A model generated the notes under the pieces. It worked only from the letters and a program-made list of their open reading frames with translations. It was not told the origin of the DNA and made no database searches. Shown piece after piece: positions 3,201 through 19,330 of a DNA stretch of 44,959 nucleotides. Position 1 is the stretch's first letter. Every line of letters begins with the position of its first letter. Both the position numbers and the translations under genes were made by a program. The stretch covers positions 1 to 44,959 of the forward strand of contig JBFKDW010000016.1 in assembly GCA_041619515.1 (NCBI GenBank), in the 5' to 3' direction. This stretch comes from Acidimicrobiia bacterium (lineage in GTDB: Bacteria; Actinomycetota; Acidimicrobiia; Spongiisociales; SHLN01).

Positions 3201-3253
3201 AGGGGATAGTTGATGATGGCTTGCTGCTCGGGGCTGGGCTGAACGTGGTTCAT
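221..3253 (-). CDS. AdnB-like ATP-dependent helicase-nuclease (UvrD/REP motor plus C-terminal PD-(D/E)XK nuclease)
   Basis: Walker A AGAGTGKT, DEYQD, VGDADQTIY, TVHRAKGLEW, YVAATRAR; C-terminal GRIDAI..VVDFKSG and CPKR...CHHC....C. Start placed at ATG 3253, which overlaps the upstream stop (ATGA). Confidence 0.9.
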   Translation of the reverse strand: MNHVQPSPEQQAIINYPLQPLRVDAGAGTGKTTTMALRLSHLLTSGQVDAALGITFTNKASHELAERIEALRSTPEPIDITTYHGFAHGILTEFGAHVGVERTARLITPGFVRQLMRDALGSGTYAAIDVAAAGQRVEEMAALNNQLAENLRRPGGHPRQVGEVGERRAELLEALERYEALKRDLGAVDYGDLLVLAHRLLSEVPGVVAHLRSRYQVVLLDEYQDTNPAQRELLRLVFGDGFPVTAVGDADQTIYEWRGASLENFDGFPSHFPTADAGPAPTLPLTLNRRSDKRILEVANAIAGNISRRTGENDLVATDDAGPGEVGYGWFRTAVDEAQWITDTILEAEASGTPWGEMAVIFRKNAQIPLVRSVLAAAGIPAQVVSLGGLLHVPEVSDLWAWLRILDDPSDGPAFLRIMLGAHYQLGLGDLVPLAEWVRRSEAGRAGDDDVEESPGFSLLEAAFEVPELTRPEASEALSRFRPLYAELVEHAQGVTLVELCRRLLTRLGVWVEVDALEEAAARSARLNLYRFLDLAESWSPLEGRPSLTAFLEYLANLLDEAAPEELDLARVARADAVTLITVHRAKGLEWDVVFLPAVVNDTFPARLRGFDDPYTHPRALPYSARLDADSLPHLDSTNHQARKDALRPRHEDQEWRTAYVAATRARHRLLVTGAYWYTQKRPKKPSALFDLVASTPGAVARSVCEEPGERPAAAPPEPAGPAPDPHFPDGWAAALWAAVAETGSPAARAGDRAAYDDEVKQLSLVLGSLPEPETDAGSSTTVTSVSGLVTYATCPKRFYWSDIDRLPRRPASWLKRGVELHRKIELHNRGVIPLDLAEPETYDFAPDESEPKPNAYATFERSRFGTTKPRWVEVPFRLAWDDRRVRGRIDAIYETGDGWEVVDFKSGRPRPDPARIVQLQAYAVAVDEGILATERPESLTVTFAYFGDGLEEVSEVVDEAWLTQARARIDDILEAIDGEEFAPMPSAACHHCDFVKFCEAGQAWLADNG

Positions 3254-6207: not shown

Positions 6208-6253
6208 GGCTACACGGTACATCCCGGGTGTGACGGGAAAGTCGCCGCCGGTT

Positions 6254-6697
6254 CTAGAGGGCGAGGGTCGGCTGGTGCGGGCGGGTCGACCCGTCGGCCA
6301 GGATATGAACAACGGTAAAGCCGGCGTCCGCGAATGGTGCCGCCAGGGCGGTCGCACGGTGGCAGTGTGCCGGCTCCAACTCGGCACACAGGAGGGCGCT
6401 GAGCGCACCGCGCGCCAGCCCGGTCGCCTCGGTGATGCCGGCCCGGAGCACGGCAGGATCTTCGACCGGGGCATGCTCGGCCGGTGGCAGCGCCTTACCG
6501 CCAAGATGATCGCCCAGCCACCGGTACGAGATCCCGGCTGCGACGAGCTCGGCTTCGAGGTGGTTGCGGTTGTACTGGGGGGCGCGGCCCGAATAGGGCT
6601 GCGACCGCACGTCGAGCACGGTGCGGACCCGGTGGGCGCTCAGCCTGCGCAGCAGGTCATCGAATGGCAATGCTCCGTGGCCGATCGTGAACAGCAT
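6254..6697 (-). CDS. DUF488 family protein
   Basis: LFTIGHG, LDVRSQPYS, YRWLGDHLGG and LLCAE....CHR motifs typical of DUF488. Confidence 0.85.
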   Translation of the reverse strand: MLFTIGHGALPFDDLLRRLSAHRVRTVLDVRSQPYSGRAPQYNRNHLEAELVAAGISYRWLGDHLGGKALPPAEHAPVEDPAVLRAGITEATGLARGALSALLCAELEPAHCHRATALAAPFADAGFTVVHILADGSTRPHQPTLAL

Positions 6698-6750
6698 GCG
6701 TCCGTCTCCACAAGTTCGGTCCCGTTAGATTGGCACCCCGAGGAGGAGAT

Positions 6751-8034
6751 ATGGCGGATCGATTCGGAGACGGCGGACTTGGCGAGCTCGAGTCGCCCCT
6801 CTATCGCGAAGCGCTTGCTCAACTTGACCGGGTGGCCGGCGTCATGGGGCTCGACGAGAACATCCATGCCCGGCTGCGGGTTCCTCAGCGGGCCACCGTC
6901 ACGACCTTCCCGTTCCGCCGTGAGGGCTATTACGAGGTGGAAACCGTGTTTGCCTACCGGGTCCAGCACGTGCTCACGATGGGTCCGACCAAAGGTGGCA
7001 TCCGCTACGCCCCGGACGTGAACCTCGGAGAGGTTGCCGCCCTGGCGATGCTGATGACGTGGAAGACGTCGCTGATGGGACTTCCATTCGGAGGAGCCAA
7101 AGGCGGGGTCCGGGTCGATCCAACGGTGCTGACCCGTCCGGAACTCCAGCGTCTCACCAGGCGGTACACCGCTGAACTGATCAAGGTCATCGGACCCGAC
7201 ACCGACATCCCCGCGCCGGACATGGGGACCAACGAACAGGTCATGGCCTGGATCATGGACACCTACTCACAGCATGTCGGCCACGCAGAGCCGGGGGTGG
7301 TGACGGGCAAACCCCCGGAGCTGGGAGGATCGATTGCCCGACGGGAGGCCACCGGTCGCGGTCTGGTGAGCTTGCTTCCCTCTGCCGCCGCCCAGCGCGG
7401 ATTCGAGGTCGAAGGCTCCCGCATCGTCGTCCACGGCTTCGGCAACGTCGGCCAGTACGCGGCCCTGAGCGCCCACGAGATGGGAGCACTCGTGGTGGCA
7501 GTGTCCGACGTGACCGGCGGCATCTACAACCCGCGGGGCCTTGACATCCCCAAGGTGCAGGAGTGGGTGATCGAGAACGGAAACCTCGCCGGATACCCCG
7601 AGGTCGACCGGGTGACGAACGACGAGCTGTTCACGCTCGAATGCGACATCCTGATACCGGCTGCGGTGGGAGGCGTGATCACCGCCGAGAACGCCGACAG
7701 GGTCACCGCCCGGATCATCGCTGAGGGCGCCAACGGGCCCACCACGCTGGGGGCGGACAACATCCTGCGAGACCGCAACATCTTCATCATCCCCGACATC
7801 CTCGCCAACGCCGGGGGGGTGACCGTCTCCTACTTCGAATGGGTGCAGGACCTCCAGAACTACTTCTGGTCTGAGGGCGAGATCGTGGCACGACTGCGCG
7901 AGATCATGGGACGTGCGTTTCAAGACGTGCTCCACATCTCGATCAACGAGGGACACGACATGCGGACCGCGGCCTTGGTGAAGGGAATCCGGCGGGTCGC
8001 GCAGGCCAAGCTCGTCCGCGGCGTGTACCCGTAG
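6751..8034 (+). CDS. gdhA: Glu/Leu/Phe/Val dehydrogenase (glutamate dehydrogenase)
   Basis: GPTKGGIRY, LPFGGAKGG, DIPAPDMGT, GFGNVG, EGANGP, NAGGVTVSYFEW; SD AGGAGGA before ATG 6751. Confidence 0.9.
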   Translation: MADRFGDGGLGELESPLYREALAQLDRVAGVMGLDENIHARLRVPQRATVTTFPFRREGYYEVETVFAYRVQHVLTMGPTKGGIRYAPDVNLGEVAALAMLMTWKTSLMGLPFGGAKGGVRVDPTVLTRPELQRLTRRYTAELIKVIGPDTDIPAPDMGTNEQVMAWIMDTYSQHVGHAEPGVVTGKPPELGGSIARREATGRGLVSLLPSAAAQRGFEVEGSRIVVHGFGNVGQYAALSAHEMGALVVAVSDVTGGIYNPRGLDIPKVQEWVIENGNLAGYPEVDRVTNDELFTLECDILIPAAVGGVITAENADRVTARIIAEGANGPTTLGADNILRDRNIFIIPDILANAGGVTVSYFEWVQDLQNYFWSEGEIVARLREIMGRAFQDVLHISINEGHDMRTAALVKGIRRVAQAKLVRGVYP

Positions 8035-8048
8035 CTATCCTCGGCGTC

Positions 8049-8474
8049 ATGGAAGATCTGGAGTTCCCGGCCCCATCCGAGGGCTTCGTAGTGACCCATT
8101 TCCTGGTTTCCGACGACGTCCCGGCGTCGGTCGATTTCTACGTAGGCATCCTCGGTGGCCGGGCCGTGATGGAGGGCGCGCCTTCCATCGTGAAACTGGC
8201 GAACACCTGGATCATCATCAATGAGGGGGGCGGGCCAACCGACGACAAGCCGACCGTCGTTCTGGACGTTCCCGGTGATCCGGATCGGGTGAGCGCCTTC
8301 CTCAACATCAGGGTTGCCGACATCCACCAGGCGTACGACGAGTGGTCGTCCAAGGGGGCGACGTTCTTGACCGCCCCCATCGACCGCGGCGCCGAGATAC
8401 GGTGTTACCTGCGTGATCCCGCCGGGCATCTCATCGAGGTTGGCCAGGCAACCGGAGCGATGCCGGCGGACTGA
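8049..8474 (+). CDS. VOC/glyoxalase family protein
   Basis: THFLVSDDVPASVDFY ... RVADIHQAY ... YLRDPAGHLIEV. Confidence 0.85.
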   Translation: MEDLEFPAPSEGFVVTHFLVSDDVPASVDFYVGILGGRAVMEGAPSIVKLANTWIIINEGGGPTDDKPTVVLDVPGDPDRVSAFLNIRVADIHQAYDEWSSKGATFLTAPIDRGAEIRCYLRDPAGHLIEVGQATGAMPAD

Positions 8475-8475
8475 T

Positions 8476-8519
8476 CGTGCCTGCCGACAGAGCCGCCCCC
8501 GTGCCTGCCGACAGAGCCG
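8476..8519. repeat. Perfect 20-nt direct repeat, 2 copies, 24-nt period
   Basis: CGTGCCTGCCGACAGAGCCG at 8476-8495 and 8500-8519, intergenic. Confidence 0.9.
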
Positions 8520-8553
8520 GCGGCGGGGCGGAAGCCGGTAGGCTCTCCCGCCG

Positions 8554-9240
8554 ATGGATGGAGCGTTTCTCCTCGTGCACAGCCCGCTGCTCGGGCCGTC
8601 TTCGCTCTCAGAGCTCGCGCGTCGGGCTGCGTCCCGCGGGGTGCACGCAGCTGCCCCCGACCTGACCGGGTCCGCAGCCACCGAGGGGGGAAGGGCGTAC
8701 GCCGAGACGGCGGCGGCGGCCGCAGCCGACCTGCCCGACCGGGTCGTGGTGATCGGACACTCGGGCGCGGGCGCCTTTCTCCCGAACATCGGGCACCTAC
8801 TCGGCGACCGCTTGGCCGCTCTGCTCTTCGTGGACGCGGTCGTGCCGCCGCCGTCCGGCGCCCACCGGACGCCGGCACGCCTCGGTCTCCTGCTCGACGA
8901 GCAGACCGTTGACGGGATGCTTCTCCCGTGGATCGACTGGTGGCCGGAGGAAGCGCTCGGCGAGATCCTCCCAGATGCCGCCGACCGCGACCTCCTGCGG
9001 GCCGACCTGCCCCGGCTGCCCCGGTCGTTCTATGACCAGGATGTTCCCGTCCCGAAAGGCTGGTCCGACTGGGCAAGCGCATATCTCCGTTTGAGCAGCG
9101 CCTACCACGCCGAGTTCGAGGAGGCAGGAAGGCGCGGCTGGCCACGGGGCTCGATCGAAGGGACTCATCTCAGCATGCACACACATCCCGACCGGGTTCT
9201 GGGCGCGATCGAGCCCTTGCTCGGCGAGCTTGGCTTGTGA
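8554..9240 (+). CDS. Alpha/beta hydrolase fold protein
   Basis: LLVHSPLLG start, nucleophile elbow GHSGAG, LLFVDA, C-terminal GTHL. Confidence 0.8.
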   Translation: MDGAFLLVHSPLLGPSSLSELARRAASRGVHAAAPDLTGSAATEGGRAYAETAAAAAADLPDRVVVIGHSGAGAFLPNIGHLLGDRLAALLFVDAVVPPPSGAHRTPARLGLLLDEQTVDGMLLPWIDWWPEEALGEILPDAADRDLLRADLPRLPRSFYDQDVPVPKGWSDWASAYLRLSSAYHAEFEEAGRRGWPRGSIEGTHLSMHTHPDRVLGAIEPLLGELGL

Positions 9241-9289: not shown

Positions 9290-9676
9290 CTACGCCTCCC
9301 AGGCGCTCCCGTCGTCGGCGGCAACCTCCCGGAAGCGCACGATCTTGTCATCGGCGAAGTCGAAGACGTGGACGGTGAGGCCGCCCGCCGGTTTCCCAGT
9401 GGCTTTCACCTTGTAGCGAGTGGTCAGCACCGACACGACACGATCACCTTCGGCAAGCACCGATTCCAGGTCGAAGCCCTCGAATTCTGTGAGCTCGATT
9501 GTCCCCATGTACTCGGTGAAACCGGTCAGGCCTTGGTAGTGGCCCCCAAACGGGTTCCCTTCGTAGTTGGTGATCTCGACATCCTCAGACATCAGCGAAA
9601 CCATCGGCTGGATGTCTTCCTGCAGGAACGCCTCGTAGGCGGCACGAACGGCCTTCGCATTCTCGGCTGCTCCCAT
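9290..9676 (-). CDS. NTF2-like/SnoaL-like protein
   Basis: ENAKAVRAAYEAF, EGDRVV, VHVFDFADDKIVRFRE; G-rich SD before ATG 9676. Confidence 0.8.
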   Translation of the reverse strand: MGAAENAKAVRAAYEAFLQEDIQPMVSLMSEDVEITNYEGNPFGGHYQGLTGFTEYMGTIELTEFEGFDLESVLAEGDRVVSVLTTRYKVKATGKPAGGLTVHVFDFADDKIVRFREVAADDGSAWEA

Positions 9677-9787
9677 TGCCAACACCCCCTTTTGCCTCGA
9701 CGCCCAGGTTGGGCATCGGTTCTGAGAATGCTAGATGACGGTTGAGGGGTGTGGTGAGGGGTAGCCGGGGATTTGTTGTGGTCGAAG

Positions 9788-10588
9788 CTAGGCGGGAACC
9801 ACGTCGGGGCGGCGTTTCATCTCGCCGCTCGGCTCCCCGGTCCCACCGAAGGCAGGGCAGATTTCCTGGAAGGAGCACCAGTCGCACAAACGCGACTGTC
9901 GCGGGGGATAGGACTGGCGGGCTTCAGCCCGGATGATGGCATCCCACAGGGCCCGGACCTGGCGCTCCATGGCGTCGAGCTTCTGGTCGTCGACGTCGAG
10001 TGAGTACATGGTGGGGCCGTTCAAGTAGAGCAGCCGCAACTGCACGGGGGCCCGTCCGAAGTGCTTGCGGGTGAGGAGGGCATAGATCTTCAACGCGAAG
10101 AAGGCGGTGAGAGCGTATCGCTCCGGCGGTGCTTTCCCGGTCTTGTAGTCGGTGACGATGAGGTCGCCGTGCTCGTCCTCGTCGATCCGGTCGAGGATGC
10201 CCCGCACCTGGACTGTGTTGATCTCCTCGAGCAGGTCGAGCTCGCAGTCGACCGGGGCGATCCGGCGAGGATCCTCCACCGAGAAGTAGTTGGCGAGCAG
10301 CTCCATGCTTTCGATGCCCCAGGCGCGCTCCTCCTCGACCGAGGAGAACATGTCCGGGTACTCGACGTCACGGACCTCCGTCCAGGCCTGGCGGAACAAA
10401 TCGAATAGCCGGTCGGGCGTTCGGTTGTCCGCCTCCAGTCCGTAGAGGCGCTGCAAAGCGAGGTGGGCCGTCGTGCCGCGAGCCTGGTACACGGTGGCCG
10501 GCTCCTCGAGCCGATCGATCGCGCGAAACTTGAACAGCTGCGGACACTGCTTGAAGTCACTCAGCCTGCTCGGTGAGACTCGATCCAT
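9788..10588 (-). CDS. Stand-alone PD-(D/E)XK (RecB/Cas4-like) nuclease with probable Fe-S cysteines
   Basis: SPSRLSDFKQCP, RGILDRID, VTDYKTGK, CDWCSFQEICP; ATG 10588 has TATAGT 7 nt upstream. Confidence 0.85.
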   Translation of the reverse strand: MDRVSPSRLSDFKQCPQLFKFRAIDRLEEPATVYQARGTTAHLALQRLYGLEADNRTPDRLFDLFRQAWTEVRDVEYPDMFSSVEEERAWGIESMELLANYFSVEDPRRIAPVDCELDLLEEINTVQVRGILDRIDEDEHGDLIVTDYKTGKAPPERYALTAFFALKIYALLTRKHFGRAPVQLRLLYLNGPTMYSLDVDDQKLDAMERQVRALWDAIIRAEARQSYPPRQSRLCDWCSFQEICPAFGGTGEPSGEMKRRPDVVPA

Positions 10589-10699
10589 ACCCGGCACTAT
10601 ACGGGACCAGAGTGACACGTTTGTAATTACCGCCCGAGTTCCCGTCGAGCCGCCTCCGATATGAAGGCCTGCGGCACCTTCGGTGCACAGGCCGACCTC

Positions 10700-10773
10700 C
10701 GCGAAATCTCGTGCTATGGCGCGAAAATAACCTACGGATCTCATTTGACCGGGAGCGGGAGGGGGCGTACATT
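10700..10773 (+). promoter_or_regulatory. Sigma70-type promoter P1 with upstream tandem CGCGAAA boxes
   Basis: TTGACC 10745-10750, 17-nt spacer, TACATT 10768-10773; CGCGAAA at 10700 and 10720. Same layout as the promoter at 16016-16089. Confidence 0.8.
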
Positions 10774-10780
10774 CATCTGC

Positions 10781-11400
10781 GTCGCCCGGGAAACCGGGTG
10801 CCCCGGCCGGATGTGAGAGCAGAAGGCGGGCTTGCGAATCGAGAGGTTCGTGAGAATCCCGGAAGGGCGAAAGCCCGACCGGGCCTCCGGAGGGGTGTAA
10901 CAGCCTCGGCCGGAGACCTGGGGAGGTGTAAAAGCCCGACCAGGGCCCTGCGATACCGGATCGTGGGGAGTGGTTGCCCGGGCCCCGATCGGGTCAGGCG
11001 GATGCGCTCAGGCGCAGACGACTGCCGGGAAACCACGCCTCGTTCGCCGTCTCGGCGGAGAATGAGGGTTGGCGAGGGTGGAGCCCGAAAGGGTGAGGCC
11101 TCAGCCGACAGCTGATGGCCGCAAGGTCACCAGTCCAGCGACGCTGGAACGTTGGAGCGCAAAACGCTCCGGCGCCGCAAGAGACACGGGCTCACGGGCA
11201 CCGATCTCGGGCGGAAACAGCCGGCACGGCACCCGCAAGGGGGCCGCCCGGCAGCGGAAAGATCCCGAGAGGGTTGAGGTTACGGCCGAGGCTCACTCGG
11301 GATTTCCGCGTGTGTGGGCCCAACATCGGGCACCGAATTCATCGCGATGCTTCGGCGTCCTGATGCGTCTCCCCAGAGACGGCCGCTTGCATTGCGGGAG
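10781..11400 (+). ncRNA. Putative large structured non-coding RNA (about 600 nt), family unassigned
   Basis: Follows P1. Near-continuous stem-loops with loops GAAA 10790, GAGA 10815, GAGA 10841, GAAA 10869, GAAA 11087, GCAA 11121, GCAA 11235, GAGA 11267 and C(UUCG)G 11351. Many G-U pairs and a long-range helix 11188-11196/11313-11321. No credible ORF. Ends are approximate. Confidence 0.7.
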
Positions 11401-11424
11401 CGCCCGATAGAACAATGACGGGAG

Positions 11425-11970
11425 ATGAGAGGTGTCCAAGCCAGCCTGCCGTCTCAGGACGTGGTCGACGGGCTCGGGCCAATGCCCGACCTCGAGCAAC
11501 TGGTTCGCGCTCACTGGGCACCCACCTATCGCGTGGTTGTGGCGCTGGTTCGCGATCATGGCATGGCAGAAGACATCACCCAAGAGTCCCTGCTCAAGGC
11601 GTGGAAAGCCCTTCCCACCTTCCGGGGAGATGCCTCGCTGCGCAACTGGATCCTCCGGATCGCCCACAACACCGCCATATCCGCGCTGCGACGGCGCAAA
11701 CCAGAGTCCAGGGAGCCGTGGAATCTCCCCGAGTCCCTATCCGGCCCTGATGCGTCAGACCTCGTCGCCGACCGGCTCATGATGGAGCAGTTCCAGACGG
11801 CGCTGTCGGCCCTCTCCCCGAGCACGCGGGCCATAGTGGTGTTGCGGGAAGTCGAAGGCCGATCGTATGAGGAGATCGCCGAGATCGTTCGATTGCCGCT
11901 CTCAACGGTGCGGACCCGGCTCTTCCGGGCGCGCAAGGAGCTGGCCATCGCCCTCAAGGGCTGGCGCTGA
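11425..11970 (+). CDS. ECF-family RNA polymerase sigma factor
   Basis: Region 2 AEDITQESLLKAWKALPTFRGDASLRNWILRIAHN; region 4 SYEEIAEIVRLPLSTVRTRLFRAR. The start may instead be 11482. Confidence 0.92.
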   Translation: MRGVQASLPSQDVVDGLGPMPDLEQLVRAHWAPTYRVVVALVRDHGMAEDITQESLLKAWKALPTFRGDASLRNWILRIAHNTAISALRRRKPESREPWNLPESLSGPDASDLVADRLMMEQFQTALSALSPSTRAIVVLREVEGRSYEEIAEIVRLPLSTVRTRLFRARKELAIALKGWR

Positions 11971-12290
11971 TGCCGTGGCTCCATCCCTTCCGCAGACGGC
12001 TCATCGCCTGGGCCGACAATGTCGACGATCCGCGCATCCAGGCGCACGTCGAGCAGTGCGAACGGTGCCTTGGCATCGTCGAGGAGGCGGGAAGATTCGA
12101 TGACATTCCGCTGGGAAACGTGCTCGGAGCGCTGCTACGGGCGCCGGACTCACTGGAAGAGGAGCTGGTGGAGCGCGCCGAGATCGCCAGAAGCAACCGG
12201 GCATCTCTCGAGATTCTCGGGGGCCTCGCCGTCCTGCCGTGGGAGACCCTCCAGCTCATGATCGACCAGCGGAAACCCGCGGATGATTGA
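11970..12290 (+). CDS. Putative zinc-binding anti-sigma factor (ZAS)
   Basis: HVEQCERC matches HxxxCxxC; translationally coupled to the sigma gene. Confidence 0.7.
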   Translation: MPWLHPFRRRLIAWADNVDDPRIQAHVEQCERCLGIVEEAGRFDDIPLGNVLGALLRAPDSLEEELVERAEIARSNRASLEILGGLAVLPWETLQLMIDQRKPADD

Positions 12291-13008
12291 TCGGTGGGTA
12301 TGGGCCGTGCTTGCCATCACGGCCGGCCTGGCGGCCGGCAGTGGGGTTGGATGGCTGGTCAGAAGGCGGCTGCAACGGGAAACCAACCGCCCGGTCTTGC
12401 GTCGCGTCGGCAATGCTTCGGGGGCATTTCTCTTCTGGTTCTTCACTCTGGTCGGGGTGGTGTTTGCCGTCGGGATGGTCAGCCCGGAAACCCTGCGGCC
12501 GCTGCCCCGTCAGGTGCTCGACTACCTGCCTCGCGTGCTGGCAGCCGGCCTCATCGTCATTGGTGGATGGGCGTTGGCGATAGTGGCGTCCAGTGTGCTC
12601 GCCGCCGCCCTCAGCCGGGCGACCGGGCGCCTAGAGCGTGAGTTCGAACGGGTCATCCGATACGCGGTGCTCACCCTGGCGGTCATTCTTTCCCTGGCGC
12701 AGCTTGGGGTGAACGTCACCGTGGTGACGGTGCTGGTCGCCGTCGTCGCGTTGACCCTCGGCGCATCCATCACGATCGTCATCGGGCACGGCGCTCGGCA
12801 GATATCCGGGGAGATCGCGGCCGGCCGCTACCTGCACAGCTTCATCGACGTCGGCGACTATGTGCAAGCGGGCGACTACCAGGGCGTCGTGGTGGGCATC
12901 CATCCCGCCACGCTCGAGCTCGAGGACATCGATGGCGCCAGGATGCATGCCCCCTACAGCAAAGTGCTCTCCGCCGGACCGACGATCCGGCGCAATGCTT
13001 CCTCCTAG
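12283..13008 (+). CDS. Small-conductance mechanosensitive channel-like membrane protein
   Basis: About 5 hydrophobic segments (YLPRVLAAGLIV, LAQLGVNVT) followed by the MscS beta-domain pattern DVGDYVQAGDYQGVVVGI. Confidence 0.7.
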   Translation: MIDRWVWAVLAITAGLAAGSGVGWLVRRRLQRETNRPVLRRVGNASGAFLFWFFTLVGVVFAVGMVSPETLRPLPRQVLDYLPRVLAAGLIVIGGWALAIVASSVLAAALSRATGRLEREFERVIRYAVLTLAVILSLAQLGVNVTVVTVLVAVVALTLGASITIVIGHGARQISGEIAAGRYLHSFIDVGDYVQAGDYQGVVVGIHPATLELEDIDGARMHAPYSKVLSAGPTIRRNASS

Positions 13009-13077
13009 CCGCCCGGTCCGTGGCATATAGAGTTGACGGCCCCGCAGGGCCGTCAACTCGCTGATCTCCTTCGGTTC

Positions 13078-13896
13078 TCAGGTCTCCTGGTCGCCCTTGA
13101 TGACGCCCTTGACACCGTCGACACCGGATGCGGCCACGTCGCGGACCGCGTGCACCGCCGACTCACCGATCTTCTCGGCGGCTTCGAAGGCTCCGGTCGC
13201 AGCCGCCGAGGCGGCGTCTTCGACGCTGAGCCCCACCTTCTTGGCTCCGTCGATGGCGCCACTGAGGGCAGCAGTCGTCACCTTGGTGACGTCGACTCCC
13301 ACCTCGCCGGCCCCGGCTACGAGGCCGCGGGCGGTGCTGCGAACGGTCTCGAGCACGTCGGCGCCCACCTCCTTGGCGCCGTTGACGGCTCCGGACATCG
13401 TGGCCGATGCGGTCCCGATGACATCGCCGCCGAGATCCTTCGCCGAGGTCACGACGGTGTGAGCGAGAGCGTAGGCTCCTTCGCCGAGACCGACGCCGAC
13501 ACTCTGGGTCGTGCTTATGACACCCTCGGCGATCGCCCCCGCCGTCGAGGTGAGGTCCCCGCCTATCTCACCCGACCCTTTCAGGGCGGCCCGGACGGTA
13601 TCCGAGATGACGCCCACCGTAACGGTGGCAACCTCGCCGACGCCCTGCAGCAGACCTACCACCAGGCCCTTGCTGGTCTTGATCAACCCGGTCCCGACCT
13701 CGTTGACGGCTGAGAAGGCGCTGGTGGCTACCTGGGAGAGGACACCGGTGGCCCCGGAGGCTACCTCTCCGGCGCCTTTCAGAGTTGAGACGGTGGCATC
13801 CTTAACGGTCTCGGCGGTGCCTTCCACCACTGCACCGGTGCCACGGAGCACTTTGAGGACTCCGTTCTTAACCTTGGTAACTGGTCCATCTGCCAT
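13078..13896 (-). CDS. Hypothetical 272-aa Gly/Ala/Val/Thr-rich protein made of 22-residue repeats
   Basis: ATG 13896 with GGAGG SD; about 11 tandem 22-aa units such as GAKEVGADVLETVRSTARGLVA. The upstream part of the track ORF is antisense to DUF2332. Confidence 0.8.
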   Translation of the reverse strand: MADGPVTKVKNGVLKVLRGTGAVVEGTAETVKDATVSTLKGAGEVASGATGVLSQVATSAFSAVNEVGTGLIKTSKGLVVGLLQGVGEVATVTVGVISDTVRAALKGSGEIGGDLTSTAGAIAEGVISTTQSVGVGLGEGAYALAHTVVTSAKDLGGDVIGTASATMSGAVNGAKEVGADVLETVRSTARGLVAGAGEVGVDVTKVTTAALSGAIDGAKKVGLSVEDAASAAATGAFEAAEKIGESAVHAVRDVAASGVDGVKGVIKGDQET

Positions 13897-14025
13897 TCGA
13901 CTACCTCCCTGTTGCTGCTGGCCTACCTGGGACGCCTCCGAGCACCCAAACGTCGCGGATTTCGCCGTCAGGGGCCCCCGCGCCGGGCCCAGTAGCCACC
14001 GGGCATCCCCGTGGCACAATACCGG

Positions 14026-15081
14026 ATGGCGGCTTCCGGGGATGGCATATCCATCGCAGAGAGGTTTCGGGAGTTTGCGGTTGCCCTCGCCGACGAGGCA
14101 CCGCTGTATTCGCATTTGTGTGAAGCGATTGTGGGCGACGATGAGCTCCTGGCTCTCGCCGGAGGCGTGCTTCCCGGCCAGCCGCCCCCCAATATGCTGT
14201 TTGCCGCCGTCCAGTTTCTGCTGTCGAACGGCCCGCCTCATCGGCTCGCAGACTGGTACCCGGCACTGTCGGGTGGGCCTCCATCCGGCGGCGACCCCTT
14301 CCCCGTGTTCCGGGAGTTCTGCCTGACCCATCGCGTGGAACTGGCGGAACTGATTGCCTCCCGCCGAACCCAGACCAACGAGGTAGCCCGCTGCCTGGCC
14401 CTGCTGCCCGCCTTCGCCACCGTTGCCGGGAGGGCCGGCCGACCCTTGTCGCTCATCGAGGTCGGGTCGAGCGCCGGGCTGCTGCTCGCCTTCGACCGCT
14501 ACCACTACGAGTACGGGAGCGCCCGGTGGGGTCCTCCGGACGCGCCGCTGCGACTCTCCACAGAGCTCCGTGGTCCGGTGCCACCGCTGCCGGCTGCGGA
14601 CATGCGTATCGCGAGCCGTGTGGGCATCGACCTCCATCCGGTCGACGTCACCGACCCAGTGGAAGTCCGGTGGCTCGATGCACTCGTTTGGCCCGGCCAT
14701 GAGGAACGCCGTGCCCGTCTGCGCCGTGCGATCGATGCGGTTGCGTCCGATCCGCCACCCGTGTTGGCGGCCGATGCTCTCGCCGTGATCGAAGAGTTGA
14801 TCGCAGCTGTGGACGACAGGGCAATGCCGGTGGTGTTCCACAGCTTCGCTCTATTCCAATGGACCTCGGCCCAGCGGGCCGATCTCGAGTCGCTGCTCCG
14901 GGGGGCCCGCCGGCCCGTCACGCGGGTGTCGCTCGAGTGGTTCGGGTATCAGCGAAACCTACCGTTCATCAAGCTGATTCAGTACCAGGGCGGATCCGAG
15001 CAGGTCGAGACCCTGGGCCGTGCCCATCATCACGGGCGCTGGCTGGAGTGGGGGCCGGACGAGGCGATCAGCGGTTCGTAA
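14026..15081 (+). CDS. DUF2332 family protein
   Basis: APLYSHL, RRTQTNEVARC, LIEVGSSAGLLLAFDRY, RVGIDLHP, WLDALVWP, AHHHGRWLEW. Confidence 0.85.
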   Translation: MAASGDGISIAERFREFAVALADEAPLYSHLCEAIVGDDELLALAGGVLPGQPPPNMLFAAVQFLLSNGPPHRLADWYPALSGGPPSGGDPFPVFREFCLTHRVELAELIASRRTQTNEVARCLALLPAFATVAGRAGRPLSLIEVGSSAGLLLAFDRYHYEYGSARWGPPDAPLRLSTELRGPVPPLPAADMRIASRVGIDLHPVDVTDPVEVRWLDALVWPGHEERRARLRRAIDAVASDPPPVLAADALAVIEELIAAVDDRAMPVVFHSFALFQWTSAQRADLESLLRGARRPVTRVSLEWFGYQRNLPFIKLIQYQGGSEQVETLGRAHHHGRWLEWGPDEAISGS

Positions 15082-15952
15082 TCGTCAGATCGGGCAGGTA
15101 CGTCCGAACCGTGGGGTAGGCGAGCTCCACTGCCGGCTCCGCCGCCAGCTTCTCGAGCAGAGACCTCCAGAGCGTGGTGTCGATGTGGCGGCGAGATCTC
15201 ACCGGGATGATCACCCGGCCGGTGACCATCACCCCGCTGTCGCGCACCGCGACATACGTGGTCGGAGTCAAGTGCGTGTAGCGGATGCGGTACTCGGTGG
15301 CGGCGTCGCGCAGCGCTCGGCGGATCTCCTCGGAGGCCATGCTGGGAGCGTGCTCGGTGAGGGTTTGCTGCATCATCTGCTCGGCCAGCTTCCAGTCGGA
15401 TTCGAAGGTCACCAGCATCGGAACCTCGTGCCATATGTAGGGGAATCCCTCCGTGTAGTTGGCGAGCGGCTGGGAGAACAGCAGCCCGTTTGGAATCTGG
15501 ATGATGCGGCCCGTCGACTGATCAGCCTCGACCCACCCCTTGATCTCCAGCATCGAGAACCGCTGCGACCGCACGTTGACGACGTCGCCCGCCTGGCCCC
15601 CGATCTCAACCCGGTCACCGACCTTGAAGGGGCGCCGCAACAGGATGTACCCCCACCCGGCGAAGTTCCGCAAGATGTCGGCCAGGGCAATCGCCACGCC
15701 GGCTGACACCACCCCGATCCAGGCCCCGATGTTGCTGACCTGCAACCACACGAAGCTGACCGCCACCAAAACGATGAAGGTGCCGCCGTAACTGGTCACC
15801 TTCTGGGTGCGGTACCAGATCTCGGTGTCGTCGACGCGTTTGCGAACCAGCCGGAGAATCACGGTTCGGAGGATGATTGCCCCGATGATCACCCCGATCG
15901 TCACCAGCAGGCGGATCTGCCACTGCGACGGATCGGTGAAGAAGCTGCCCAT
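15068..15952 (-). CDS. MscS-family mechanosensitive ion channel
   Basis: 3 TM segments then ILRNFAGW..RRPFKVGDRVEIGGQAGDVV, QSTGRIIQIPNG, NYT, ELAYPTVR. Confidence 0.9.
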   Translation of the reverse strand: MGSFFTDPSQWQIRLLVTIGVIIGAIILRTVILRLVRKRVDDTEIWYRTQKVTSYGGTFIVLVAVSFVWLQVSNIGAWIGVVSAGVAIALADILRNFAGWGYILLRRPFKVGDRVEIGGQAGDVVNVRSQRFSMLEIKGWVEADQSTGRIIQIPNGLLFSQPLANYTEGFPYIWHEVPMLVTFESDWKLAEQMMQQTLTEHAPSMASEEIRRALRDAATEYRIRYTHLTPTTYVAVRDSGVMVTGRVIIPVRSRRHIDTTLWRSLLEKLAAEPAVELAYPTVRTYLPDLTITNR

Positions 15953-16015
15953 ATCCGGTGGAGCGTAGATCCGTGGAGTCGCGAAGCGCGGCATCAAAAT
16001 GCCCGCGCCAGCCCC

Positions 16016-16089
16016 CGCGAAATCTATTTGTAGGGCGCGAAAACTAGGTAGTCCCTGAGTTTGACGGGGGAGTCCGACTGGCGTAGATT
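16016..16089 (+). promoter_or_regulatory. Sigma70-type promoter P2 with upstream tandem CGCGAAA boxes
   Basis: CGCGAAA at 16016 and 16036; TTGACG 16061-16066, 17-nt spacer, TAGATT 16084-16089. Spacings identical to P1. Confidence 0.8.
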
Positions 16090-16096
16090 CGTTTAC

Positions 16097-16374
16097 GTGT
16101 TGGGGGAAACCCCGGCACACTCCAAAGGCCCGCAAGGGCCGGAGGAGCGGCTTCGTCGGGCACCCCGCAAGGGGAACGGCCAAGAGGGCCTTCGGGCTCA
16201 CTCGGACGCTGGCGAAGCCACTACCTCGCCGGACGACTTCGGTCGGCCGGGGAGGTCCCTCACCGGGAGGCTTCGGCCAAACGGAGAGGATCGGAGTGGC
16301 CTTCGGGTCACTTCGGACGGGAGCCCCGGAGGGGCGAAGGTTTCGGCCGACGCTCAACCGGGGCTTTCCGCGTG
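16097..16374 (+). ncRNA. Putative structured non-coding RNA (about 275 nt), family unassigned
   Basis: Eight hairpins, all capped by canonical tetraloops: GAAA 16106, GCAA 16132, GCAA 16167, UUCG 16191, 16238, 16272, 16302 and 16342. Enclosing helices 16149-16157/16211-16219 and 16318-16329/16358-16370. The next gene is convergent, so this is not a 5' UTR. Confidence 0.78.
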
Positions 16375-16446
16375 CCGGGCCGTTCTCGCCCAGGGCCGAC
16401 TCCGATCGTGAGTCTCCCCTCCAGGATGCTGCCGGGCGGCGGGCTC

Positions 16447-18390
16447 CTATAGGCCCATGTTGGCCAGGAATGCCTCGTTGTTTGGCTCGCGGCCCAAGAA
16501 CTCAATCAGGAGGACGTCGGCGTCCTTGGTCCCTCCCTGCTCGAGGATGGTCCGGCGATAGGCCCGGCCGACCTCGGGGTTGAGGATGCCCTCGGCCTGG
16601 AATCGGCTGTACATGTCGTCGCCGAAGACCTTCGACCACAGGTAGCCGTAGTACCCGGCGTCGTAGCCGCCCATGAGATGCCCGAAGCTGGCCAGGAAGA
16701 ACGTTCCCTCCGGGAACGGGAGCTCGTTGACTTTGTACGCCTGGCGATCGAGGGCGTCGAGATCGCGCACGTCTGCATCGTCGTGCAACATGAGATCGAG
16801 CGTTCCGAAATAGGCCTGCCGCAGGTTGGCGGCGGCTATGTTCACGTCGCGGGCCGCCACCAGCTGTTGCACGAGCTCGTCGGGGATGCGGTCCCCGGTC
16901 CGGTAATGGCGAGAGAACGTGGCCAGCACCTCGGGCTCCCAGGTCCAGTGCTCCATGATTTGCGAGGGAGCTTCGACGAAATCCCACTCGGTGTTCGCTC
17001 CCGAGAACCGCACCATCTCCGCTTTGGTCAACGTCTGGTGGAGGATGTGTCCGAACTCGTGGAACAGGGTGAGGACTTCCTCGTGGCGCAGCAGCGATGG
17101 AGCATCTGCGGTCGGCTTGGTGAAGTTGGCGACCATCGCGGCAACCGGCCGGATCGTCTCTCCGGCCAGGTTGCGATGGCCGGCCACCAGGTCGAAGGCG
17201 GCGGCGTGCCCGTACTTGCCCTCACGCGGGAACAAGTCCATGTAGAAGTAGGCGAGATGATCGCCGCTTGCCGCATCGAGCACCTGGTAGAGCAGGACGT
17301 CATCGTGCCAGGCGGCAGCCTCGTCGACCCGGGCGTAGGTGACCCCGAACATCTCGGCGGTGATGTCGAGCATTCCGTCGATCACGGATTCGAGCGGAAA
17401 ATACTCGGCGACCTCGTACTCGTCGACGCCATACTCGTCGCGTCGGATCCGGGTGCTGTAGTAGCTCACGTCCCACTGCTGGAGGGTGTCGTCGCCGTAT
17501 TCCTCCAAGAGCATGCTTCGCATCTTGGCGTGTTCGGCCCGAACCTTTTCCTTGAGACGCGGAACCAGCTCTGAATAGAACTTCTCGACCCGCTCGGGAT
17601 CGGCCATCTTCACGTCCATGCTGTGATGAGCCCACGACTCGTACCCAACCAGCTCGGCGATGTGTCGCCTGAGCGCTAGTGCTTCCTCCAGCAGGGGCCG
17701 GTTCTCGCTGACCACCGACGTGTTCTTCTTGCGGAGCAGTTCTTCCCGGCGATGGCGGCTCGTGGCGTTCTGGAGGAAAGGGAACAGGTCCGGGTAGTCC
17801 AGCGTCACCCGATAGGTTCCCTCTGCGTCTCCCGGCTTGAGGGCGCCGATGTAGGAGTCGGGAAGCCCGTCGAGCTCCTCCCGGGTGACTTCGATGTGAT
17901 CCGTGTACGCATCGACGTTGGCCCCGAAGGCCACTTCCAATTCGACGAGGCGCTGCTTGAGCTCTTTGAGCTGGTCACGCTCGTCCGGTTTCAGCCCGTG
18001 ACCCGCCCTCCGGAAGTCCCGCATCCAGAAGTCGAGCAGACGCTGCTGCTCGGCGGTGGCGTCCGGGTCACTTTCGGCGAGTCTTCGCATGCCGGCGTAG
18101 AGGTCGGAGCGAAAGACGACCTCGATGCTCCACTTGTTCAATCTCTCCTCTTCCTCGGTGGCGGCAATCCTCACTCCAGGGTCTGGATGAACTCGGGCCA
18201 TGAAGGCGCCCTTGCCATAGGCGACCTCGATCACGGCCGCAGCCTCGTTGAGCGGCAGCAGCGTGTTGGCGACAGTGTTCTTGGCCGCGACCGCAGCGAT
18301 ACCGTCGATCAGGCGGTTGGCAGCGGTGATCGCCTCGTCGGTGATACGGGCGACGCTCTCGGCTGTGGTCCCGCGGTAGTCGTGAAGCAT
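16447..18390 (-). CDS. M3 family metallopeptidase (thimet oligopeptidase/Dcp-like)
   Basis: LFHEFGH zinc motif, DLFPREGKYGHAA, DFVEAPSQ, GGYDAGYYGYLWS, FLGREP. Confidence 0.93.
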   Translation of the reverse strand: MLHDYRGTTAESVARITDEAITAANRLIDGIAAVAAKNTVANTLLPLNEAAAVIEVAYGKGAFMARVHPDPGVRIAATEEEERLNKWSIEVVFRSDLYAGMRRLAESDPDATAEQQRLLDFWMRDFRRAGHGLKPDERDQLKELKQRLVELEVAFGANVDAYTDHIEVTREELDGLPDSYIGALKPGDAEGTYRVTLDYPDLFPFLQNATSRHRREELLRKKNTSVVSENRPLLEEALALRRHIAELVGYESWAHHSMDVKMADPERVEKFYSELVPRLKEKVRAEHAKMRSMLLEEYGDDTLQQWDVSYYSTRIRRDEYGVDEYEVAEYFPLESVIDGMLDITAEMFGVTYARVDEAAAWHDDVLLYQVLDAASGDHLAYFYMDLFPREGKYGHAAAFDLVAGHRNLAGETIRPVAAMVANFTKPTADAPSLLRHEEVLTLFHEFGHILHQTLTKAEMVRFSGANTEWDFVEAPSQIMEHWTWEPEVLATFSRHYRTGDRIPDELVQQLVAARDVNIAAANLRQAYFGTLDLMLHDDADVRDLDALDRQAYKVNELPFPEGTFFLASFGHLMGGYDAGYYGYLWSKVFGDDMYSRFQAEGILNPEVGRAYRRTILEQGGTKDADVLLIEFLGREPNNEAFLANMGL

Positions 18391-18445
18391 CCGGCAAGAT
18401 TAGCCCCGAGTGCATGCGGCTTCTGTCGGCCGTAAGATCGCTGGT

Positions 18446-19045
18446 ATGAAGTATCCGGACTCACTACTGAGCGGCGGGGAAGAGATATTGCACGCCTTTC
18501 GCCCGCATTGGAAGTCGCTCGTCATCCCGGCCGCCTGGACGCTCCTGGTCATCGTCGGTCTTGCCCTCGTGCCACGCCTCCCCGACGAGAGCTGGCTGCG
18601 CCTGTCCACCATTGCCATCCTCCTGGTGGGTTGGCTGGTGGTAGCGGTGGTCCCGGCGCTGCGGTGGTGGTTCACCCAGTTCGTCCTGACAAACGAGCGC
18701 CTCGTGCTCCGCAAGGGGATCGTGGCTCGCAGCGGCGTGGAGATTCCGCTCGAGGTCATCAACGACGTCATCTTCTCGCAGACCGTCTTCGAGCGGCTGC
18801 TCGGCTTCGGCGATCTGATCATCGAGTCGGCAGGTGAAATGGGACAGAGCCGCTTCTCCAATATCCCCAATCCCGACGGCTTTCAGGCCGAGCTCTACCG
18901 GGTCCGCGAGGACCGGGCTCGGGCTCTCACCACTGCGGAGGCGCCTTCCGACACCCTGGCCACCCTCGCCCGCCTCCATGCCGATGGAGTCCTCACCGAC
19001 GAGGAGTTCGCCTCCAAGAAGGCAAAGCTCCTCGACGAGATCTAG
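18446..19045 (+). CDS. Membrane protein with bacterial PH domain and C-terminal SHOCT
   Basis: RPHW, 2 TM segments, FVLTNERLVLRKGI, ERLLGFGDLIIESAG, LARLHADGVLTDEEFASKKAKLL. Confidence 0.85.
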   Translation: MKYPDSLLSGGEEILHAFRPHWKSLVIPAAWTLLVIVGLALVPRLPDESWLRLSTIAILLVGWLVVAVVPALRWWFTQFVLTNERLVLRKGIVARSGVEIPLEVINDVIFSQTVFERLLGFGDLIIESAGEMGQSRFSNIPNPDGFQAELYRVREDRARALTTAEAPSDTLATLARLHADGVLTDEEFASKKAKLLDEI

Positions 19046-19054
19046 ATCGGGCGG

Positions 19055-19330
19055 TCAACCCAGCTTTTCCATCAGCCGCGCCCTCGTCGTTTCCAGCTTT
19101 TGGCGCCGGTCGGCCAGCTTCTGCAGGCGGCGCTCGAAGCGGGCCACGTCGCCGCTGGTGATGCGGGCGTTCTCGCGCTCGATGGGATCTTCGAACACCG
19201 CAGCGTCCCGGGCTGCGTCATCGGCCAGCGAGCGATGGTATGACAGCTCGTCCGCAAGAATGCGCTCTTGCTCGTCGAGGTCCAGCAGCTGGTCGGTGAC
19301 CGCCATCAGGCGGCGTTCCAGGCGTCCCAT
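19055..19330 (-). CDS. Small coiled-coil hypothetical protein
   Basis: GAGGAGG SD before ATG 19330; heptad-like charged sequence; directly follows the amidohydrolase. Confidence 0.7.
   Translation of the reverse strand: MGRLERRLMAVTDQLLDLDEQERILADELSYHRSLADDAARDAAVFEDPIERENARITSGDVARFERRLQKLADRRQKLETTRARLMEKLG

Follow-up and report, generated by a model that had tools for sequence, protein, structure and literature searches.

An uncatalogued family of structured RNAs with a shared promoter design, inherited across an order of uncultured Acidimicrobiia

Introduction

What is encoded by two long stretches of DNA that lie between genes, begin with promoters of the same build and fold, on paper, into strings of hairpins? 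The question is raised by a contig of an Acidimicrobiia bacterium (GTDB lineage Bacteria; Actinomycetota; Acidimicrobiia; Spongiisociales; SHLN01; assembly GCA_041619515.1, contig JBFKDW010000016.1), all 44,959 nucleotides of which, positions 1 to 44,959, form the window analysed here. An original prediction, made from the sequence alone, had proposed that the two regions, here called R1 and R2, are stable non-coding RNAs expressed from a pair of co-regulated promoters, P1 and P2. We find that R1 and R2 are not a private pair: they are two paralogues of an order-wide, multi-copy RNA family. The existence of this gene family, its conserved fold and the coupling of its promoter to its RNA form the core of our results, and we hold them with high confidence. 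New here are the conserved 3' module and its covariance model, the synteny of the locus, the structures compared within the genus and the loop statistics of the family.

The source genome (G000 in our sample) comprises 3,098,012 bases in 146 contigs and is 95.65% complete. Genes in the window were mapped by a codon-position (GC3) method, the first version of which missed real genes and the second of which is still crude. On this map the other intergenic gaps measure at most 280 nt, so that the earlier statement that R1 and R2 occupy the only two long intergenic regions holds for a crude codon-position map rather than as the result of a gene caller. Some tallies below include unpublished genomes, namely G028 (BLASTN, CsrA and Hfq searches), G326 and G233 (phylum sample) and six in the nuclease survey; no claim depends on them.

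Results

Two promoters of one design

The promoter sequences quoted in the original prediction are indeed present, P1 at 10700-10781 and P2 at 16016-16097, and they align without gaps, as had been claimed, with 49 of 82 positions identical. The next-best ungapped match to P1 on either strand of the window reaches 39 identities (mean 21.3, standard deviation 3.9). The identities between P1 and P2 are concentrated in blocks, and these correspond to the elements first described: the box CGCGAAAT (starting at 10700 and 16016), the box CGCGAAAA (10720 and 16036), the -35 hexamers TTGACC (10745) and TTGACG (16061) and the -10 hexamers TACATT (10768) and TAGATT (16084). When the 9.7 kb from 9500 to 19200 were scanned with a sigma-70 consensus, P1 and P2 were the sole sites, shuffled sequences yielding 0.9 ± 1.0. 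The combined pattern CGCGAAA-N10-16-CGCGAAA-N14-22-TTGAC has two occurrences in the whole source genome, P1 and P2, while the same pattern run backwards as a control has none.

The predicted transcription starts, G10781 and G16097, each lie 8 nt past the -10 box and lead, in R1 and R2 alike, into a GAAA-capped hairpin followed by a chain of GNRA- and UUCG-capped hairpins, again as originally described. Relative to these starts the boxes are centred at about -57 and -78, on the same face of the helix. From general knowledge of bacterial promoters, we infer that this geometry is that of an upstream activator site rather than an UP element.

Three more double boxes occur elsewhere in the source genome. 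One of them, CGCGAAAA-N13-CGCGAAAA, lies outside the window on contig C19 (about 7841-8060, plus strand), is preceded by an 11-nt tandem repeat and is followed by GTGGCA-N17-TACTGT and then by a hairpin-rich stretch of about 100 nt that closes in an ordinary GC hairpin and TTT. This stretch may encode a further small RNA under the control of these boxes, one that lacks the 3' module described below.

R1 and R2 are predicted to fold as chains of local hairpins

R1 (10781-11312) has a predicted minimum free energy of -304.3 kcal/mol, with z = -9.78 against shuffled sequences, and R2 (folded as 16097-16376) one of -168.7 kcal/mol, with z = -6.37. The minus strand of R2 scores less well (-143.6 kcal/mol, z = -4.54) and loses the GNRA and UUCG loops. 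Such asymmetry in predicted fold energy and tetraloops favours an RNA read from the plus strand, in line with the plus-strand structured RNAs originally proposed. The 3' limit then suggested for R1, 11400, needs correction: the last hairpin spans 11257-11307 and R1 is predicted to end at about 11312. A GNRA-capped 5' hairpin, beginning 2-5 nt from the predicted start, is present throughout the family.

Comparison with homologues supports the folds. The consensus fold of R1, from nine sequences (alignment A4), has 148 pairs, 39 of them with compensatory change; that of R2, from eight sequences (alignment A2), has 91 pairs, 12 of them changed on both sides. In the R2 alignment 97.1% of cells are paired, against 36-54% (maximum 54.4%) when pairing partners are slid by one to three columns, and none of 500 shuffles reached its count of compensated pairs; with only 8-9 related sequences per alignment, these controls are to be read as indications, not probabilities. 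Covariation among homologues, proposed at the outset as a check of the idea, thus exceeds both the slide and the shuffle controls. One entire R2 hairpin is missing in three homologues and therefore behaves as a unit. The internal R2 hairpin at 16177-16208 (helix 7), which matches sequences of other families by BLAST, has 8 of its 11 pairs invariant. The sole contact between 5' and 3' ends in the consensus folds is a 3-bp helix that never varies, and no long-range or pseudoknot covariation was seen in the consensus folds of R1 and R2.

The length differences of R1 among congeners derive from the copy number of a two-hairpin unit, as seen in alignment A4. Tandem Repeats Finder (TRF) reports a period of 56 with 2.9 copies in one congener (G003) but no repeat in the window's own R1, where the copies are too few; the repeat unit is therefore claimed from the G003 result together with the alignment.

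A near-invariant 3' module

The most constant part of these RNAs is their 3' end. Thirty-two 3' ends from more than ten families fit a single hairpin (alignment A3), the stem of which runs from CCCGAG/CUCGGG through a 1x1 A.A or A.C mismatch to GGGNN/NNCUC. Its distal part is a 2x2 purine loop and, beyond it, a stem of 3 bp that carries a UUCG or similar cap. The helix core and a G.U pair are invariant in all 32 modules. Of the 18 pairs of the structure, 8 show compensatory change, and 96.2% of cells are paired, a value that falls to at most 65.5% when partners are slid. The core is also repeated within R2, in the internal hairpin at 16177-16208.

The hairpin is followed by a U-rich tail, UUUCC or UUUUCC. 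A simple terminator scan (at least 5 T in 8) made no call at the 3' hairpins of R1 and R2, strong and conserved as the hairpin itself is, because the U-run is short. The sequence of the core is much more constant than a terminator requires. In about two-thirds of the aligned modules the tail is followed by CGCG, which resembles an inverted promoter box, and the box-like TTTCCGCG follows many 3' hairpins.

Distribution of the family and coupling of promoter to RNA

A covariance model of the 3' module was searched against a class-wide sample of 151 genomes, 45 of which it matches. Matches are found in 35 of 36 genomes of the same order, with E from 1e-8 to 1e-17 and one to five copies, mostly clustered or in tandem. 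In other orders of the class the model matches weakly, in 9 of 114 genomes. Outside the class, the phylum sample gave weak matches only, the best at E = 8.7e-6 and the rest between 7e-4 and 8e-3, which are not interpretable. Scanning 185,579 species genomes for the exact pattern gave at least 135 stretches; most of the 80 of these that were listed are metagenome-assembled genomes (MAGs) labelled Acidimicrobiia, Acidimicrobiaceae or Actinomycetota, and among those listed no cultured member of the family was evident.

Does the promoter accompany the RNA? Thirty loci found through the 3' module alone hold 49 distinct modules. Both boxes lie upstream of 37 of them, spaced by 20 bp in 25 cases and by 21 bp in 12; eight modules have one box and four have none. 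Box 2, CGCGAAAA, together with a core promoter, precedes 45 of the 49, so that the promoter design claimed for R1 and R2 recurs ahead of independently found members of the family. Extraction from all loci gave 148 distinct promoter-to-module units, 113-828 nt long, a set that is biased towards boxed genes because box 2 was a requirement.

Several loci depart from this design. Genome G043 (family f11) carries six near-identical double boxes, AGAACGCGAAAA-N13-GGTCGCGAAAA, on one strand, most of which have no TTGAC where the family spacing would place it; downstream of one lies an RNA in which the 3' module is shortened, and a single tRNA was found by Rfam near one box site. In G065, of another order (locus L251), an RNA with the 3' module lies between bPH_2 and PD-(D/E)XK genes and lacks the CGCGAAAA boxes. 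G111, G143 and G105 (family f18; loci L249, L250 and L253, other orders) hold candidate RNAs, GNRA-rich and about 430 nt long, in which the 3' hairpin is similar but the upstream repeats are different (TGTGGA or CTGTG). Since the RNA of G065 has the module but no boxes, and those of f18 have a similar hairpin behind other upstream repeats, the RNA family may be older than its current promoter.

Synteny and vertical descent

BLASTN with the R1 region matches 27 of 61 related genomes, including 7 of 7 congeners, and with the R2 region 16 of 61, including 6 of 7 congeners. In other families the match is limited to the last 50 nt or so. Among congeners R1 is followed by R2 on the same strand, 1.2 to 3.4 kb apart, and the order is constant: PD-(D/E)XK nuclease gene, R1, MscS-like gene, R2, M3 peptidase gene. 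Other families of the order have the nuclease gene and bPH_2/SHOCT genes on either side of a tandem of two or three RNA genes, and each RNA gene has its own copy of the promoter and the same terminal hairpin. This order-wide synteny points to vertical descent.

R1 and R2 match no known RNA family

The family is absent from Rfam 15. At gathering scores nothing was found in the window, and at E up to 10 (10400-16700) nothing was found in R1 or R2, the only matches being three chance microRNA or small nucleolar RNA hits on the minus strand, inside genes at 12756-14006. Nor did Rfam match anything in 18 related loci or in eight loci of PD-(D/E)XK orthologues from other lineages. ARAGORN found no tRNA or tmRNA in the window.

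The original prediction had recognised neither RNase P, tmRNA, signal recognition particle (SRP) RNA, 6S nor Ms1 in these regions, and the searches agree with it on each. RNase P RNA lies on contig C66 of the source genome and tmRNA on contig C44. The 6S model (RF00013) has no match in the source genome, nor in five relatives at E up to 1; this silence is weak evidence because just 5 of 14 control genomes gave a match to the model. The best match of the Ms1 model (RF02566) in the source genome has E = 0.805 and 12.6 bits against a cut-off of 162, and lies on contig C25, away from R1 and R2. Neither SRP RNA model matches the source genome. A divergent SRP RNA was considered as an identity for these RNAs and ruled out: in 5 of 5 relatives, one of them a congener, SRP RNA is located elsewhere than the RNA locus. 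The 95.65%-complete source assembly yielded neither SRP RNA nor 16S rRNA, and since SRP RNA is present in all five relatives its absence here is probably an assembly gap.

At the sequence level R1 and R2 are single-copy, with BLASTN against the source genome giving only self matches below E = 0.1, so that they are not repeats of the repetitive extragenic palindrome (REP) kind. A limited literature search found nothing on small or regulatory RNAs of Acidimicrobiia, or on this RNA family.

Loops are mostly generic tetraloops

Loop statistics were gathered from 114 non-redundant members of the family, with 967 predicted hairpin loops. Seventy per cent of bases are paired, and 704 of the 967 loops are tetraloops (382 GNRA and 322 of UNCG type). 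No unpaired 6-mer is common to more than 14 of the 114 members, and the 25 commonest loop types include GGAA as the only GGA type, with 7 of 967 loops. Since the RNAs are mostly paired and tetraloop-capped and have no widely common unpaired 6-mer, we see neither a seed for pairing with mRNA nor a CsrA-type loop motif. The sequence CCGAGAGG, considered as a repeated protein-binding motif, was rejected, most of its copies being GAGA tetraloops closed by C-G pairs. Among 31 genomes searched, Hfq (PF17209) was found in none and CsrA (PF02599) in one, which is not the source genome.

Neighbouring genes

Features of the locus are collected in Table 1. The PD-(D/E)XK gene adjoins the RNAs in 20 of 20 related loci examined. 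An RNA-guided partnership with this Cas4-like neighbour was considered and set aside: across the phylum, 76 of 121 genomes have full-length relatives of the protein, and the eight nuclease loci outside the order have no adjoining non-coding gap, no bPH_2 gene and no Rfam match. No specific link between RNA and nuclease is indicated, although one may exist, the nuclease being widespread and, outside the order, lacking an RNA-like gap. The gene probably starts with the ATG at 10588 rather than at 10744 (10586-10630, minus strand); TATAGT, 7 nt upstream of this ATG, gives it a leaderless look, and a block GGGACTATACG..GAGTGACAC..TGTAGTT near the start is conserved in relatives.

R2 faces the 3' end of the convergent M3 peptidase gene. 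Between the 3' hairpin of R1 and the extracytoplasmic function (ECF) sigma gene, at 11335-11368 on the plus strand, stands GAAT-N17-CGTC, which we take to resemble an autoregulated promoter of ECF type; this would fit a sigma operon with a promoter of its own. Long minus-strand open reading frames (ORFs) at 18400-18870, 13078-14841 and 7920-8789 are antisense shadows of real plus-strand genes, namely bPH_2/SHOCT (18410-19045), DUF2332 (14011-15081) and the end of glutamate dehydrogenase (6730-8034); tblastn matches to the shadow ORFs arise because they are antisense to these genes. Further away, at 221-6504 on the minus strand, two adjoining proteins of 1032 and 1084 aa combine a UvrD helicase with PD-(D/E)XK, a pair that presumably resembles the mycobacterial helicase-nuclease AdnA/AdnB. 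In several relatives (loci L046, L052 and L055) the spacers beside the RNA genes are filled with short tandem repeats, 7 to about 55 nt in size.

Table 1. Promoter elements, RNAs and flanking genes of the locus (positions are those of the window)
Feature	Position	Strand	Evidence or remark
P1 upstream box 1 (CGCGAAAT)	10700..10707	+	Alignment with P2; family promoters
P1 upstream box 2 (CGCGAAAA)	10720..10727	+	25 bp ahead of -35 hexamer
P1 core promoter TTGACC, 17 nt, TACATT	10745..10773	+	Consensus scan, 9/12 matches
P2 upstream box 1 (CGCGAAAT)	16016..16023	+	Alignment with P1; genome pattern scan
P2 upstream box 2 (CGCGAAAA)	16036..16043	+	Alignment with P1; genome pattern scan
P2 core promoter TTGACG, 17 nt, TAGATT	16061..16089	+	Consensus scan, 9/12 matches
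R1, structured non-coding RNA, about 532 nt	10781..11312	+	Predicted ends; fold, consensus of 9 homologues
R1 5'-terminal GAAA-capped hairpin	10783..10800	+	Helix 10783-10789/10794-10800
R1 hairpin units, copy number differing among congeners	10858..10945	+	Alignment A4: one to about 7 units
R1 3' module: long hairpin, invariant GAG-A-GGG / CUC-A-CUC core, U-rich tail, then CGCG	11256..11315	+	Covariance model E 2.7e-14; helix 11257-11280/11285-11307
R2, structured non-coding RNA, about 279 nt	16097..16375	+	Predicted ends; fold, consensus of 8 homologues
R2 5'-terminal GAAA-capped hairpin	16101..16114	+	Helix 16101-16105/16110-16114; 2/5 pairs compensatory
R2 internal hairpin with 3'-module core AG-A-GGG / CUC-A-CU	16177..16208	+	Near sequence-invariant, 8 homologues
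R2 3' module	16317..16375	+	Covariance model E 6.8e-14; helix 16319-16341/16346-16368
PD-(D/E)XK nuclease gene, divergent from R1, conserved left flank	9788..10588	-	Pfam PF12705, E 4.2e-37
ECF sigma gene after R1	11425-11970	+	113 nt past R1
bPH_2 + SHOCT membrane-protein gene, conserved right flank in other families	18410..19045	+	Pfam PF03703, E 1.8e-17; synteny via antisense 'p156' matches

Discussion

A protein-binding RNA family under a box activator?

The comparisons above place R1 and R2 in an uncatalogued, vertically inherited family, order-wide in uncultured Acidimicrobiia, the genes of which share one design. Two CGCGAAAA boxes stand 20-21 bp apart, the second 25 bp ahead of a near-consensus TTGAC -35 element, and TAnnnT follows; the RNA then begins with a GNRA-capped 5' hairpin, continues as a variable string of tetraloop-capped hairpins and ends in the near-constant 3' hairpin, with GAG-A-GGG opposite CUC-A/C-CUC. 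What would such RNAs do? The explanation we prefer, with slightly better than an even chance of being right as a whole, is that R1 and R2 are paralogous stand-alone genes of this family that act through protein binding and are controlled by an activator at the boxes.

The mechanism that would go with it is more tentative and, taken in its entirety, falls somewhat short of an even chance. A putative DNA-binding activator would read both boxes and so induce every copy at once. Closure of both ends would make the RNAs long-lived, and the RNAs would bind, and probably titrate or scaffold, a putative protein with specificity for the invariant core of the 3'-hairpin helix, a core that occurs again inside R2; they would not act by pairing with mRNAs. 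A constant helix with a specific mismatch and wobble appears to be a feature of the kind that is read by a protein or a docking tetraloop.

Several points weigh against this explanation. The partner protein and the box-binding factor are both hypothetical, and everything said here of transcription and its strand, of the two transcript ends and of abundance is prediction. The covariation in R1 and R2 is drawn from few, related sequences, 8-9 in each case. The loops look like generic tetraloops for stability or tertiary contacts, with no obvious repeated protein-binding motif, and the body of the RNA may be only a spacer, or the architecture may be one of RNA alone. The short U-run lets the 3' hairpins escape a simple terminator scan. 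Finally, members that range from 113 to more than 500 nt may differ in function.

Likeness to known systems

In its logic, although with different parts, the proposed arrangement would resemble GacA-RsmX/Y/Z or 6S/Ms1. RsmX/Y/Z under GacA, and CsrB/C under UvrY, are regulons of small RNAs with a shared upstream activating site. As in these, each genome has several paralogous small RNA genes in which a common upstream box keeps a constant spacing to the promoter, the RNAs are hairpin arrays with a varying number of units and titration of a protein is presumed; the shared upstream activating sequence (box 2 at 45 of 49 modules, both boxes at 37 of 49) is a likeness of logic only. The Acidimicrobiia family differs in lacking GGA-type loops, in a lineage where only 1 of 31 genomes has CsrA, and in having as its constant element a 3' hairpin rather than loops. 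Its boxes are direct repeats, whereas the Gac box is palindromic.

R1 and R2 have in common with Ms1 and 6S that they stand alone, are highly structured, measure about 200-500 nt and have strong promoters and, with Ms1, that they occur in Actinomycetota. The niche of these RNAs would be open here, since neither is detectable in the lineage. Yet R1 and R2 match neither covariance model, their folds are chains of local hairpins rather than the long end-to-end helix with central bubble of 6S, and the family is multi-copy and very variable in length. The flanks differ too: passages of PMC9130861 place Ms1 beside genes for a HAD-IB hydrolase ('inhibition of morphological differentiation') and an oxidoreductase, whereas here they are PD-(D/E)XK, ECF sigma, MscS-like, M3 peptidase and bPH_2 genes. 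PMC10719064 lists an Ilumatobacter gene for HelD.

Comparison with a third group is also instructive. Among large ornate bacterial RNAs are OLE, ROOL, GOLLD and raiA, the functions of which are unknown or emerging. Like them, the present RNAs are non-coding, have their own promoter, a putative terminator and dense GNRA-capped hairpins, are restricted to a lineage and are known from comparative genomics only. They differ in that Rfam matched neither the window nor 26 related loci, in their tandem multi-copy genes with a five-fold range of length and in a chromosomal core synteny rather than a prophage or mobile context.

Other explanations

Alternatives to protein binding in general must be weighed against these likenesses. 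The RNAs might bind RNA polymerase (RNAP) in place of 6S or Ms1, storing or inhibiting it in slow growth. The missing 6S and Ms1 matches (6S in the source genome and five relatives; Ms1 at best E 0.8 on another contig) speak for this, as do strong, dedicated, regulated-looking promoters and closed RNA ends of the kind expected of an abundant stable RNA; passages of PMC10719064 describe how Ms1 and 6S sequester RNAP core or holoenzyme. We nevertheless judge the idea unlikely: the predicted folds string local hairpins together, with no more than 3 bp joining the two ends and no long rod with a central bubble, each genome has 2-5 copies of widely differing length, the flanks are not those given for Ms1 in PMC9130861 and the silence of the 6S model counts for little. 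A shade less probable is a role that involves RNA only, in which architectural or self-assembling molecules dock GNRA loops into helix receptors such as the GAG-A-GGG/CUC-M-CUC core. RNA-only self-assembly has recently been described for other large bacterial RNAs, and the abundance of GNRA loops (382 of 967), the purine 2x2 internal loops and invariant helix core of several hairpins and the 532 nt of R1, within the size range of large ornate RNAs, would all suit it. Against it, a fixed three-dimensional architecture would hardly tolerate lengths from 113 to more than 500 nt and the gain and loss of hairpin units among congeners; long-range or pseudoknot covariation was not seen, and the OLE, ROOL, GOLLD and raiA models in Rfam found nothing. 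Base-pairing small RNAs acting in trans, with the 3' hairpin as a chaperone handle and the variable body as mRNA seeds, come next in our estimation and seem improbable. The layout of variable body and constant 3' hairpin is modular in the right way, and some relatives, though not R1 or R2, begin with CUUCCUCC, which by the consensus that we assume resembles an anti-Shine-Dalgarno sequence. Yet R1 and R2 are almost devoid of single-stranded parts, bases across the family are 70% paired with 4-nt tetraloops dominating and no unpaired 6-mer in more than 14 of 114 members, and Hfq is found in 0 of 31 genomes; the U-run, too short for the terminator scan, is a further difference from Hfq-dependent RNAs. 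Overall, roles in RNAP binding, in RNA-only assembly or in chaperone-assisted pairing are ranked below generic protein binding.

Two further readings have very little probability. In the first the RNAs are cis-acting leaders or attenuators, R1 for the ECF sigma operon at 11425 and the last RNA for bPH_2 in other families. R1 and the sigma gene do share a strand, with R1 first and 113 nt between them, and in other families a distance of 40-100 nt separates the end of the last hairpin from the bPH_2 start. The sigma query, however, had no match in 20 related loci, so that R1 is not the leader of that gene, and the gene after R2 is a convergent peptidase; in contrast to a riboswitch or leader, there is no conserved same-strand gene downstream. 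In relatives, moreover, a separate TAnnnT with the look of a leaderless-type promoter stands 6-7 nt ahead of the bPH_2 ATG, and the tandem RNA genes each have their own promoter. Slighter still is the chance that these are DNA-level elements rather than functional RNAs, either arrays of GC-rich palindromes like REPs or bacterial interspersed mosaic elements (BIMEs), or platforms for a box protein. The regions do lie between genes and abound in hairpins, relatives have short tandem repeats close by and the box-like TTTCCGCG after many 3' hairpins could be read in this way, but R1 and R2 have no further copy in the genome (other BLASTN matches have E of at least 0.1), the strand asymmetry of predicted folds favours a plus-strand RNA, pairs are kept by compensatory changes and the order-wide synteny indicates vertical descent.

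Significance

Soils, sediments and waters are rich in Acidimicrobiia, hardly any of which have been cultured. In nearly all sampled genomes of one of their orders there is now a core-genome RNA family, marked by an unusually rigid promoter design and by a helix motif of invariant sequence. Three handles come with it: the DNA box leads to the regulator, the RNA hairpin to the partner protein and the covariance model to annotation in thousands of MAGs. Protein binding under a box activator could be taken further, and it is possible, if rather doubtful, that a lineage with no Hfq, CsrA, 6S or Ms1 runs its own global control circuit. A dedicated factor on phased CGCGAAAA boxes would drive 2-5 tandem hairpin-array RNAs, and their invariant core (GAG-A-GGG / CUC-M-CUC with a fixed G.U and an A.A or A.C mismatch) would dock a putative RNA-binding protein that is titrated or assembled; this protein could be RNAP, a ribonuclease or a new type of regulator. 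Were the partner RNAP or a ribonuclease, the family would reveal how the same control problem is solved in a lineage where Hfq, CsrA, 6S and Ms1 are all missing. If the circuit of its own is real, it would be a new RNA-protein regulatory system, with a logic like that of Gac/Rsm or 6S built from unrelated parts.

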